A stretch of 62,783 bases of DNA, counting the filler, from Candidatus Woesearchaeota archaeon (lineage in GTDB: Archaea; Nanobdellota; Nanobdellia; Woesearchaeales; CAZJJJ01): NCBI GenBank assembly GCA_046538795.1. It is 5 parts of 5 records of this genome, joined end to end, with 100 filler letters (N's around TTAATTAATTAA, not from the genome) between each part and the next. Parts side by side here need not be neighbours in the genome. Positions count along the whole stretch, not along the records: positions 15,206 to 30,281 come from JBKHIF010000034.1; positions 30,382 to 45,227 come from JBKHIF010000035.1; 3 more parts are not named here. One strand, written 5' to 3'. Positions 30,001 to 33,000 of this stretch are shown one piece after another (position 1 is the stretch's first letter; the number at the start of each line of letters is the position of its first letter). Made by a program: the position numbers.

Positions 30001-33000
30001 CTTGAACCAAACTTTATCCAGAGATTTTGTGCTGGTATCAATGAGAAGATGAATATGCTTATGATAAGCACATAGAATATGAAGCTTGTTCCGCATCTAG
30101 GATTGAGTGTAGTGTGTTTTTTTACATTTTTTACTGTGAGTTTTTCTCCTGCCTCATAGCAATTTACAGTTTTGTGTTCTGCTCCGTGATATTCAAACAT
30201 CCTTCTTACATCTCTCATGAGTCTTATGCTTCCCATATATGTTAAAACAATACCCACCCTGAAAACTCCATCTGTTACATTNNNNNNNNNNNNNNNNNNN
30301 NNNNNNNNNNNNNNNNNNNNNNNNNTTAATTAATTAANNNNNNNNNNNNNNNNNNNNNNNNNNNNNNNNNNNNNNNNNNNNCGGCAGGCGAGAAAACATA
30401 AGGAATTCAATCCAAATCTCATTCATACCATCAAAACCCAAAATCCACAACTGGTTCTTTCTGAGGCAACCCCTGAGGCTCGGAGATTGTACAACATGGC
30501 AAGACAAGTAGGCATGGACTGCCATCGCATAAAGATGTATGCAAGGTTTTCTATTTCTAAAAAGGGCATACTTTATGCAAAAATATATCCAGAGCACAGG
30601 ACAGAATCTGATGCTCTGGATTTCTTTTTCCAAAGATTTCCAATGTATACAATAATCCTTGAATCAAAAAGAGGAACATTTTTTGGATCAAAGAAAACAG
30701 GAAAAAATTATTCAAAAGATAGTTCCAAGATAATAATTGCACTACTTGAAAAAAAGATGAAAGATGACAGCATACTTTCTGAACTGGATGATTCCATGAA
30801 TGATTCTGAACTGTGGAAAGAGTTTTATTCTGCACAATATGCAGGTTCAAGAAGAAACTTAAGATTGTTCTATAAAAACATGCCAAAAAAGAATCAGAAT
30901 GGTTACAACATGAAAATGGAATCAACTATTTTCTCAGGCAACAGGACATTGAGTGAGTTTGGATAGTTAAAAATGTTTATTGATATTAAGAATACTTCTC
31001 CTTTTCAGATTTATATATTCTGTACAGAAGATATATTCCTCCGATTATTAATGGAAGGCTTAATATCTGTCCCATGGTCATCCAGCCAAAAAATAATCCA
31101 TTGTTTCCTATTTGAAAATCAGGTTGTCTGAAAAACTCGACAATAAATCTCAGCACACCATACATGGCAACAAATGTCCACGACATTATTCCTTTTGGAA
31201 CTTTCTTCTTGAAAAGGAATATCTCAATACCCAAAATAAGGAAATTCTTGAATGATTCATAAATCTGAGATGGATGCCTGAAGCCTTCTGCATTGGGAAA
31301 CTTTACTGCCCAGGGAACATCTGAAATACGCCCATAAAGTTCTCCATTAAGAAAGTTTGCTATTCTTCCCATCGCAAGACCCAGAGCAAATGGAATAGTA
31401 AGTATATCTGATATGTCATAAAACTCATATGATTTCCTTCTGCAAAATATGATGAGCGCAGCTATCAAGCCAAACAAACCACCATGAAAAGAAAGTCCGC
31501 CCTGCCATATGATAAATATATCAAGGGGATTTTCAAAAAAATATCCTATATTGTAGAAAAGAACATAGAATAACCTGGCTCCGATCATGATTCCTAGCGC
31601 GATGTAGATAAGAAGATCATCAACATCATGAAATTTCAACTTGATCTTCTTTTTTTTTGAAAGCACCTTAAGCATGATATATATCAAAAGAAAAGTAAGT
31701 GAATATACCAAACCATAATATCTTATCTGTGCAAAACCTAAATCCAGAAGTATAGGATCAATGTTGTGAACAAACATGTCTTTTAGAAAAAAAGAACTTC
31801 TTAATAAATCTATTACCATAAAAACCGTTATGATATTTTCAAATCTTCAAAAATATTATAAATCAATTAAATAATCTCTTTTTGATTTTAATGGAATATG
31901 ATGTTATTATCATCGGAGGGGGTCCAGCAGGACTATTTGCTGCGTATGAGCTTTGTGTAAATTCACCAAATCTCAAGGTCGCGCTTATAGAGAAAGGTTC
32001 TTCTATCAAAGAAAGAAAAAGATCCGATGTCATGTGCGGCATAGGGGGCGCAGGAACATTCAGCGACGGAAAGCTGCATTTTACTCCTGTATTAAGCCAC
32101 GAAAAGATGCTTGATCTCTATACTGAAGATGAGTATCAGAAATTTCTTGACTATGTGGATCAGCTTCTCACTGATTTTGGAGTAAATACTGATTATTATC
32201 CAAAAAACATAGAACAAGTAAAAGAGCTTGTCGATGATGCAAAAAAGAACAGCATAAAGCTATACATACGAAAAGCAAGGCATGTAGGAAGCGATGTTCT
32301 TCCTGAAATAATACTTAATATAGAGGAATTTCTAAGAAAAAAAGATGTTGAGATTATCGATAACACAGATGTTTCTGATCTTTTGATAAAAGACGGCAAA
32401 TTATCAGGAATAATAACAAAAGAAAAAAAAGAATATCATTCAAGATCAGTCATTGTCGCTCCAGGAAGATATAATGCACGGTGGATGCAGGAGATTGCAG
32501 ATAAATATGACTTGGGATATAAGTATGAAAAAGTAGAGGTCGGTGTGAGAGTAGAATTTCCAGAAGCGGTCATGAAAAAACACGCTGACCTTATGTATGA
32601 GACCATCTTTCTCATGCACACCCCTACATTTGATGATGCAGTAAGAACATTCTGTCCCTGTCCTAACGGGCTTGTCGCCAAAGAGAAATATGATGGTTTT
32701 GTATGTGTAAACGGACATTCAAATTCAGATCATCTTTCTGAAAATTCAAACTTTGCTTTTGTTTCAGAAATCTCACTTACAGAACCTGTTGAAAACACGA
32801 TTGCATATGCAAAGTCAATTGCACAGCTGGCAACAACAATAGGAGGAGGAAAACCAATCCTTCAAAGACTTTCTGATCTAAGGATGGGCAGGAGAAGCAC
32901 CTGGTCAAGGATCAACAAAAGTTTTGTAACTCCTTCTCTCAAAGATGTTACTCCAGGAGATATAGCTATGGCTCTTCCCTTCAGAACTGTTAAAAATCTT

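Follow-up and report, generated by a model that had tools for sequence, protein, structure and literature searches.

The closest described counterparts of the genes considered here are bacterial: the prolipoprotein diacylglyceryl transferase Lgt of E. coli (PDB 5AZB/5AZC; PF01790, TIGR00544), the signal peptidase II LspA of S. aureus and P. aeruginosa (PDB 6RYO, 5DIR) and the lipoprotein intramolecular transacylase Lit of B. cereus (PDB 7B0O). The substrates of known Lit enzymes are the ester-linked diacylglyceryl lipoproteins of Firmicutes, and Lit chemistry requires an ester-linked acyl chain. In Haloferax volcanii the same job, namely lipidation of the lipobox cysteine, is performed by AliA/AliB (arCOG02177/02178), archaeol being the group that AliA attaches. 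Haloarchaeal lipoproteins carry this archaeol in thioether linkage, according to a 2025 study (PMC12462473) that also describes archaea as devoid of Lgt and Lsp. A later report (PMC13251419, mBio 2026) counts among its results that Lgt is 'absent from archaea'. The first-pass annotation of the genome studied here had rendered the claim of the literature correctly.

Lgt, LspA and Lit in a woesearchaeal genome

The DNA analyzed here, hereafter called the window, is a stretch of 62,783 nucleotides from the metagenome-assembled genome (MAG) of a Candidatus Woesearchaeota archaeon of the order Woesearchaeales, which comprises 97 contigs and is 97.6% complete with an estimated contamination of 1.57%. 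Positions 30382-45227 of the window represent the contig that carries lgt (C7). The features discussed below, with window positions unless a contig is named, are the following.

500-1258, minus strand: putative lipoprotein substrate of contig C5, picked up in the stricter and the PROSITE-like lipobox scan alike; N-terminus MKLKILLGLMIFSLLATAC, then a polar region
30986-31819, minus strand: lgt, prolipoprotein diacylglyceryl transferase, 277 residues from the first ATG
38891-39658, plus strand: archaeal RadB, same contig as lgt (TIGR02237, 216.7 bits, cut-off 172.4; Pfam Rad51)
40474-42243, plus strand: archaeal aIF-2 of the aIF5B type, same contig as lgt (TIGR00491, 720.5 bits, cut-off 554.75; GTP_EFTU_D4 domain)
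Contig C30, 17355-17870: LspA, signal peptidase II (PF01252, peptidase A8; 117.5 bits, cut-off 25)
Contig C79, 12959-13723: Lit, lipoprotein intramolecular transacylase (PF07314; 64.6 bits, cut-off 24)

As judged from its sequence, the gene at 30986-31819 is a canonical lgt, since its product exceeds both curated cut-offs, with 235.9 bits for PF01790 (cut-off 24.9; profile positions 1-239 of 240, about full length) and 214.1 bits for the equivalog model TIGR00544 (EC 2.5.1.145; cut-off 118.9), and its essential residues are identical to those of the E. coli enzyme. Translation likely starts at Met15, giving a gene at 30986-31777 and a protein of 263 residues, because the representative of the public cluster has 263 residues. 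Full-length alignment with E. coli Lgt (5azb, E 7.7e-51) shows identity in the motifs HGGL, GRxxNFxNGExxG, RHPSQxYE and YxxxRxxxEFFRQPD, and in Y26, H103 (within HGGL), R143, N146, N149, E151 and G154 (signature motif G142-G154), as well as in E202, Y235, R239, E243 and R246, whereas W256 and Y259 of E. coli are read from the alignment as F and W in the archaeal protein. (Residues follow the chain numbering of 5azb, which equals the literature numbering plus 1, an offset counted from the alignment.) The roles of these residues, including the essential ones, are taken from PMC4728403, in which the ester oxygens of the donor are hydrogen-bonded by Y26 and R143. Both of these donor-contacting residues are retained in woesearchaeal Lgt, but their retention is no proof of ester specificity because both are essential for catalysis anyway.

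LspA aligns with its S. aureus homologue (6ryo, E 1.1e-23) in both catalytic Asp motifs (GNFIDR and FNVADS), and differs from the S. aureus and P. aeruginosa enzymes in its archaeal host and in the position of its gene, which does not adjoin lgt. The similarity of woesearchaeal Lit to B. cereus Lit is seen at the profile level only: a single-sequence phmmer search of PDB reached no Lit structure, while a profile built from seven Woesearchaeales Lit ORFs matched 7b0o over nearly its full length (E 1.9e-26). This profile aligns the H-x3-V and F-x3-H-x3-F-x4-W motifs that hold the catalytic His85 and His153 of 7b0o, with His85, Val89, Phe149, His153, Phe157 and Trp162 all matched (residue roles from PMC8275575); in the protein's own numbering, H89 and H173 are invariant in the seven aligned order members, together with the aromatic pocket. 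The score of Lit with NCBIfam TIGR01906 (37.2 bits) lies below the cut-off of 74.8, a shortfall that restricts what can be said about orthology, not about fold and active site, because TIGR01906 is a hypothetical-equivalog model. A search of this genome for Lnt (apolipoprotein N-acyltransferase, TIGR00546) gave no match.

These results bear out the first-pass annotation, which had called all three proteins true homologues with catalytic residues: its scores and its alignments to 5azb and 6ryo were reproduced, and the catalytic His of Lit has been aligned to 7b0o. Its caveat that databases may already name such genes was also well placed, given that NCBI and JGI records carry names for them (at NCBI, 'prolipoprotein diacylglyceryl transferase [Candidatus Woesearchaeota archaeon]'). 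In the literature searched, subscription journals and bioRxiv supplements excluded, no paper turned up that describes Lgt or Lsp from DPANN archaea or Woesearchaeota. What is new is that these genes have been recognized, and what this implies; no new protein family is involved.

Substrates, distribution and phylogeny

On sequence grounds, Lgt, LspA and Lit would form a complete bacterial-type maturation route, as for the 'lyso-form' lipoproteins of Firmicutes. Lipobox precursors would first be exported, after which the +1 cysteine would receive a thioether-linked glyceryl lipid from a phosphatidylglycerol-type donor via Lgt, the signal peptide would be removed by LspA, and Lit would move the sn-2 acyl chain onto the new alpha-amino group, the whole route substituting for the AliA/AliB of other archaea. 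We infer that the Lgt route is active, and consider it probable that this archaeon has a functional Lgt/LspA-dependent lipoprotein pathway.

Scanning the genome with a PROSITE-like lipobox pattern retrieved 27 ORFs, while a stricter scan found Cys at 16 of 221 sites (7.2%) versus about 2.8 expected (Cys in the proteome, 1.26%), a 5.7-fold enrichment at the +1 site. Depending on strictness, therefore, 16-27 lipobox proteins are spread over many contigs, a range that brackets the earlier count of at least 22. Those with a Pfam match have extracytoplasmic domains (GH114, Kazal, beta-propeller, cupredoxin); the candidate at 500-1258 has no Pfam family.

Lgt occurs in 112 of the 121 sampled genomes of the order (92.6%, in agreement with the earlier claim of near-universality at 92%), LspA in 111 and both together in 104; the tallies for Lgt and LspA include one genome flagged as unpublished (G112), without which they become 111/120 and 110/120. 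Lit is present in 45 of 61 order genomes (74%) and not over its cut-off in the other 16. In a phylum sample, Lgt was found in 141 of 151 genomes, namely 115 of 117 within the order and 26 of 34 in the other orders of the class. Some relatives possess extra divergent Lgt paralogues in which the signature motif is altered.

In the phylogenetic tree of Lgt, 17 archaeal sequences are separated from 74 bacterial ones by a branch with SH-aLRT 98. Relatives were collected by searching with eight closer sequences and one motif pattern, the best 80 of at least 600 stretches being kept, and two entries were omitted from the tree: L018, a divergent paralogue of genome G082, and L019, a fetched stretch from which no ORF was recovered. 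Because the bacterial sample is biased, the donor lineage cannot be named from this tree. Among the matches listed, identity is 40-46% to the Lgt of Terriglobia, Geobacter, Nitrospirota and Alphaproteobacteria, and three sequences from MAGs labelled Methanosarcinales nest among those of Woesearchaeota, the flanks of their contigs showing no clear affinity to the present genome.

The distribution of the other archaeal solution is complementary. AliA/AliB belong to COG1967, which we take to be Pfam DUF63, an equivalence whose sole support is the supplement header 'COG01967' together with the matching control genomes. The DUF63 model matches its positive controls H. volcanii, M. jannaschii and M. 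acetivorans. The check for an AliA homologue that the first-pass annotation had left to be done has now been run, and DUF63 has no match in this 97.6% complete genome or in any of the 121 order genomes. Within the phylum sample it is found in three of 151 genomes, all three among the 10 that are Lgt-negative and none among the 141 that are Lgt-positive, so that Lgt and DUF63 never co-occur in this sample. The data of PMC12462473 are in line with this pattern: Supplementary Data 3 gives zero for arCOG02177 and arCOG02178 in all seven Woesearchaeota genomes, and among the rows listed from file-5 there are predicted lipoproteins, two Woesearchaeota rows each having 12 among 42 secreted proteins.

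Lipid donor and alternative readings

The host of this Lgt sets it apart from that of E. coli, being an archaeon in whose genome no glycerolipid synthesis genes of either domain's type were found: PcrB/GGGPS over cut-off, CDP-alcohol phosphatidyltransferase, PlsY and PlsC all gave no match, and the sole UbiA-family gene resembles decaprenyl-phosphate phosphoribosyltransferase, not DGGGPS. The donor would thus have to be scavenged. Some relatives in the order differ in having PlsC and CDP-alcohol genes; PlsC-type acyltransferases are present in 32 of 61 order genomes, some adjoining CDP-alcohol phosphatidyltransferases, whereas GGGPS is found in none of the 61. These counts, combined with the ester requirement of Lit, lead us to infer an anchor that would be a scavenged bacterial-type diacylglycerol. 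Given that the Lit reaction depends on an ester-linked acyl chain, the most likely donor is a bacterial-type diacyl phosphatidylglycerol; the chances that it comes in this form from a bacterial partner seem to us about even. Two SLT (murein transglycosylase) domains lie over cut-off in this genome and, among the control genomes, SLT matched bacteria only. Cyclopropane fatty acid synthase (CMAS) gave only a match below cut-off (23.6 bits).

The same pathway might instead handle an archaeal lipid, Lgt transferring archaeol (dialkylglyceryl) from archaetidylglycerol scavenged from an archaeal host to give anchors of the haloarchaeal type, with Lit idle or in another role. That thioether-archaeol lipoproteins exist in haloarchaea (PMC12462473) means that Lgt could, as far as the chemistry goes, use an ether donor; those DPANN whose hosts are known take up host lipids (PMC6349945), and the nested sequences labelled Methanosarcinales could hint at archaeal partners, or else reflect co-binning. 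We nevertheless regard this reading as unlikely. The invariance of the Lit dyad and aromatic pocket in seven sequences, and the presence of Lit in about three quarters of the order genomes examined, are difficult to account for unless the substrate is an ester; the order has PlsC-type acyltransferases and no GGGPS; the SLT domains are aimed at bacterial walls; and archaea whose ether membranes are of the ordinary kind use AliA/AliB, whose DUF63 never stands alongside Lgt in our sample.

A much less probable reading holds that the Lgt-family enzyme is real and lipidates a dedicated partner or lipid instead of lipoproteins in general. The divergent paralogues of some relatives would fit such a role, but the copy studied here has the full canonical signature, LspA accompanies Lgt in most order genomes, lipobox proteins are numerous and dispersed, and the neighbours of lgt in four closed genomes are housekeeping genes, with no conserved synteny or cassette across the four. 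These closed genomes also bear on whether a bacterial contig was mis-binned into the archaeal MAG, an artefact that the fragmentation into 97 contigs and the estimated contamination might suggest: all three genes lie on the closed single-contig genome G016, and Lgt with LspA on three further closed genomes (G025, G085, G097). RadB and aIF-2 share the assembled contig with lgt, and the GC content of the three contigs (0.349 for C7, 0.36 for C30 and 0.342 for C79) is typical of the genome (mean, 0.352). A dispersed repeat at 35342-35477, situated between lgt and these archaeal markers, is where independent Logan contigs break, and for this reason the linkage of lgt to RadB and aIF-2 rests on the MAG assembly. 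The same lgt region is, however, present in a run from a second study, the archaeal Lgt sequences are set apart from the bacterial ones in the tree, and Lgt recurs through nearly the whole order, which leaves mis-binning barely credible. (No RNA runs holding this DNA were listed.)

The repeat itself gave no tRNA and no Rfam match. It lies near three of 20 lipobox genes, compared with 70 of all 1264 ORFs, a difference too weak for any claim.

Implications for archaeal lipoproteins and the lipid divide

Read as a bacterial-type pathway, the data assign a complete bacterial route to an entire archaeal order rich in species and to the greater part of the class around it, and archaeal lipoprotein biogenesis would then have at least two unrelated solutions, which do not overlap in the sampled genomes. 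This would fill a gap in the data of PMC12462473, where Woesearchaeota appear with predicted lipoproteins and without AliA or AliB.

The occurrence of this gene set in a small, symbiont-type DPANN archaeon hints that bacterial-style lipids are used. Since Lit acts only on ester-linked acyl chains, the set of Lgt, LspA and Lit offers a testable genomic marker for bacterial-type lipids, one that would extend to the bacterial hosts of uncultured DPANN archaea. Whether such archaea have bacterial lipids or hosts is a question that Castelle et al. 2021 and Ding et al. 2025 are said to have left open. It is conceivable, though we propose it only tentatively, that Woesearchaeales and their sister orders build the anchors of their surface proteins, and probably their membranes, from ester-linked bacterial glycerolipids obtained from bacterial partners. 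If this is true, the possession of Lgt/LspA/Lit as against AliA/AliB would mark the side of the lipid divide on which a DPANN lineage stands and, with it, whether its host is bacterial or archaeal.

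Three lipoprotein enzymes and their conserved residues

All contigs joined in the window belong to a single genome, and contig C7 occupies window 30382-45227. The genome assembly (G000; 1.34 Mb in 97 contigs, completeness 97.6%, contamination 1.57%), in which no Lnt was found, carries genes for diacylglyceryl transferase (Lgt), signal peptidase II (LspA) and intramolecular transacylase (Lit):

Window 30986-31819, minus strand: lgt, ORF of 277 codons counted from the first ATG
G000 contig C30, 17355-17870: LspA, PF01252 match of 117.5 bits
G000 contig C79, 12959-13723: Lit, PF07314 match of 64.6 bits (cut-off 24)

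Met15 is the likely start of lgt, because a 263-aa protein represents its public 90% cluster. The window Lgt matches PF01790 with 235.9 bits, over profile positions 1-239 of 240, and the NCBIfam equivalog TIGR00544 with 214.1 bits (cut-off 118.9). Its alignment with E. coli Lgt (5azb; E 7.7e-51) shows identity at Y26, at H103 of the HGGL motif, in the signature motif G142-G154 (with R143, N146, N149 and E151) and at E202, Y235, R239, E243 and R246, counting along the alignment with chain numbering equal to literature numbering plus 1; the roles of residues in the E. coli enzyme are treated by Mao et al. 2016 (PMC4728403). LspA aligned with its S. aureus counterpart 6ryo (E 1.1e-23) retains both GNFIDR and FNVADS. 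The Lit ORF lies under the cut-off of NCBIfam TIGR01906 (37.2 vs 74.8) and reached no solved structure in a single-sequence phmmer search; a profile of seven sequences, the ORF with six relatives of the order Woesearchaeales, aligns nearly full length with B. cereus Lit 7b0o (E 1.9e-26), and the invariant residues E86, H89, D92, V93, F169, H173 and F177 fall on both His motifs of that structure. The homology claimed for all three enzymes in the first-pass annotation is confirmed, and its interpretation, a bacterial-type lipoprotein maturation pathway in an archaeon, is supported.

At the 3' end of lgt, run X2 from another study differs: its contig across lgt and the adjacent genes carries 311 different bases instead of the 31 at window 30965-30995, which looks like a strain variant. 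Some genomes hold three to five Lgt-family matches; divergent paralogues or variants occur in G190 (L011), G082 (L018) and G218 (L022), with extra matches in G101, G130 and G082, and these sequences carry other motifs, GC-containing ones for instance, where the signature NF-x-NGE would stand.

Distribution and ancestry of lgt in archaea

PMC13251419 (mBio 2026) calls Lgt 'absent from archaea' on the basis of RefSeq genomes; PMC13631571 (2026) leaves DPANN unmentioned, and the literature searched yielded no report of Lgt, LspA or Lit genes in DPANN or Woesearchaeota. Sequence databases do name such genes, a possibility that the first-pass annotation had raised: NCBI records read 'prolipoprotein diacylglyceryl transferase [Candidatus Woesearchaeota archaeon]' or '[Nanoarchaeota archaeon]', and JGI names are equivalent.

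Sampling one genome per family of the order (n=121, Lit being scored in the first 61) bears out the near-universal presence of Lgt that had been proposed: 112 of the 121 have it over cut-off (86 of the 92 of high quality) and 111 have LspA, or 111/120 and 110/120 when G112, flagged as unpublished and counted in both tallies, is removed. Both occur together in 104/121, and G052 and G110 are the only genomes with neither; Lit exceeds its cut-off in 45/61, and all three coexist in 38/61. In G052, which is 95% complete and without an Lgt or LspA match, Lit nevertheless scores 72 bits. Among 151 high-quality genomes of the phylum, Lgt is present in 141, comprising 115/117 of the order and 26/34 from other orders of the class.

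The contig bearing lgt, C7, also encodes two archaeal markers, RadB (TIGR02237, 216.7 bits; cut-off 172.4) and the initiation factor aIF-2 (TIGR00491, 720.5 bits; cut-off 554.75), and the GC content of C7, C30 and C79 (0.349, 0.36 and 0.342) can be set beside a genome mean of 0.352. Logan contigs from two runs of two studies cover C7 fully, but because they break at a repeat between lgt and the markers (window 35342-35477), this linkage rests on the MAG assembly. The stronger argument for archaeal origin comes from closed, single-contig genomes of the order (G016, G025, G085, G097), which all possess Lgt and LspA, G016 having Lit as well; their lgt neighbours are housekeeping genes (IMP dehydrogenase, tRNA synthetases, ThiI, NDK), with no conserved cassette around lgt among the four.

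The repeat itself (C7:4961-5096) is a dispersed intergenic element of ~137 nt with 40 genomic copies of at least 50 nt, 17 of them at least 120 nt long and 88-98% identical; none of the 40 lies inside a called ORF, and seven are no more than 300 nt away from a contig end. It has no tRNA or Rfam match, its Logan contig depth is ~218 and ~125 vs ~10 and ~7 elsewhere, and much of the fragmentation of this assembly probably stems from it.

The best database relatives of the window Lgt are 51-59% identical to it, and bacterial Lgt proteins (Terriglobia, Geobacter, Nitrospirota, Alphaproteobacteria) reach 40-46%. A quick phylogeny with IQ-TREE had 91 rows, made up of the window protein, 10 genome-search relatives and 80 contig-search loci; the divergent L018, and L019, which has no recovered ORF, were left out. 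In it a branch with SH-aLRT 98 splits 74 bacterial rows from all 17 archaeal rows, consistent with a single ancient acquisition and vertical inheritance since then. Sampling of bacteria was biased, the contig-search loci being the best 80 of at least 600 stretches with one motif pattern, and the tree therefore names no donor lineage. The Lgt sequences of three contigs (L052, L058, L073), whose MAGs bear the label 'uncultured Methanosarcinales archaeon', are nested among Woesearchaeota rows, two of them with SH-aLRT 99; they could represent mis-binned DPANN DNA, co-binning of symbiont and host, or transfer, and the flanks of these contigs showed no clear affinity to G000.

Candidate substrates and the AliA/AliB counterpart

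Proteins with a lipobox, which the first-pass annotation had also reported, were recovered among 1264 non-overlapping ORFs of at least 80 aa, 27 of which match a PROSITE-like pattern. A stricter test (charged N-region, uncharged hydrophobic stretch ending [LVIFMA][ASTVIG][GAS], any residue, polar tail) gave 221 sites with Cys at 16 (7.2%), vs 1.26% Cys overall and ~2.8 expected. Most of the 20 lipobox proteins scanned against Pfam have no family, and those matched bear extracytoplasmic domains: GH114, Kazal (two proteins), beta-propeller (PF09826) and cupredoxin. One candidate lies in the window:

500-1258, minus strand: candidate lipoprotein with lipobox

Whether an AliA homologue stands alongside Lgt can be judged from Pfam DUF63 (PF01889), which we take to be COG1967. 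Positive in the controls H. volcanii, M. jannaschii and M. acetivorans, DUF63 has no match in G000 and is found in 0/121 genomes of the order. Its three occurrences in the phylum sample (G152, G174, G177) are all among the ten genomes without Lgt, so that Lgt and DUF63-type systems are mutually exclusive in these 151 genomes. Supplementary Data 3 of PMC12462473 (Nature Communications), in its Woesearchaeota rows and 30 of 67 DPANN rows, lists arCOG02177 and arCOG02178 under 'COG01967', with 0/0 in all seven Woesearchaeota and in 24/25 of the Pacearchaeota among the rows listed.

The lipid donor

G000 has no CDP-alcohol phosphatidyltransferase, PlsY or PlsC, and its best GGGPS/PcrB match, 16.6 bits, is under cut-off. 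Its single UbiA-family gene resembles decaprenyl-phosphate phosphoribosyltransferase, with a PAP2-type phosphatase beside it; at this locus (L127, C71:2348-4636) the latter is undecaprenyl-diphosphatase-like, and a glycosyltransferase and a bacterial-type MutS lie nearby. With synthesis genes for both glycerolipid kinds absent, the organism would, judging from gene content, be unable to make either and would have to take lipids up. Among 61 genomes of the order, GGGPS is found in none, PlsC-type acyltransferases in 32 and CDP-alcohol phosphatidyltransferases in 33. The two adjoin, PlsC-type genes often in tandem pairs, at G009:C7:7257-8230, G038:C21:3500-6195 and G050:C15:9559-12964, a pairing that resembles part of a phospholipid module of bacterial type, here in archaea.

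Y26 and R143, which in E. coli Lgt hydrogen-bond the donor's ester oxygens (PMC4728403), are both retained in the window protein, a weak sign of an ester donor because both are essential regardless. SLT (murein lytic transglycosylase) domains, positive only in the bacterial genomes among the controls, are over cut-off at C81:14545-14865 and C87:26107-26217 of G000. The question of bacterial hosts for Woesearchaeota has been raised (PMC8204110), modification of bacterial lipids by them proposed (PMC11868695), and PlsC with PlsY noted in DPANN (PMC6431249); the available text of these three papers does not mention Lgt, Lsp or Lit. In view of the lipid gene evidence and of Lit's ester requirement, we consider scavenged bacterial-type diacylglycerol the most likely lipoprotein anchor, with roughly an even chance of being correct.

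Lgt, LspA and Lit of this genome are ordinary members of known families; what makes them interesting is the archaeon that encodes them, their clean mutual exclusion with AliA/AliB and the implication that the presence of Lit carries for the lipids of these archaea.
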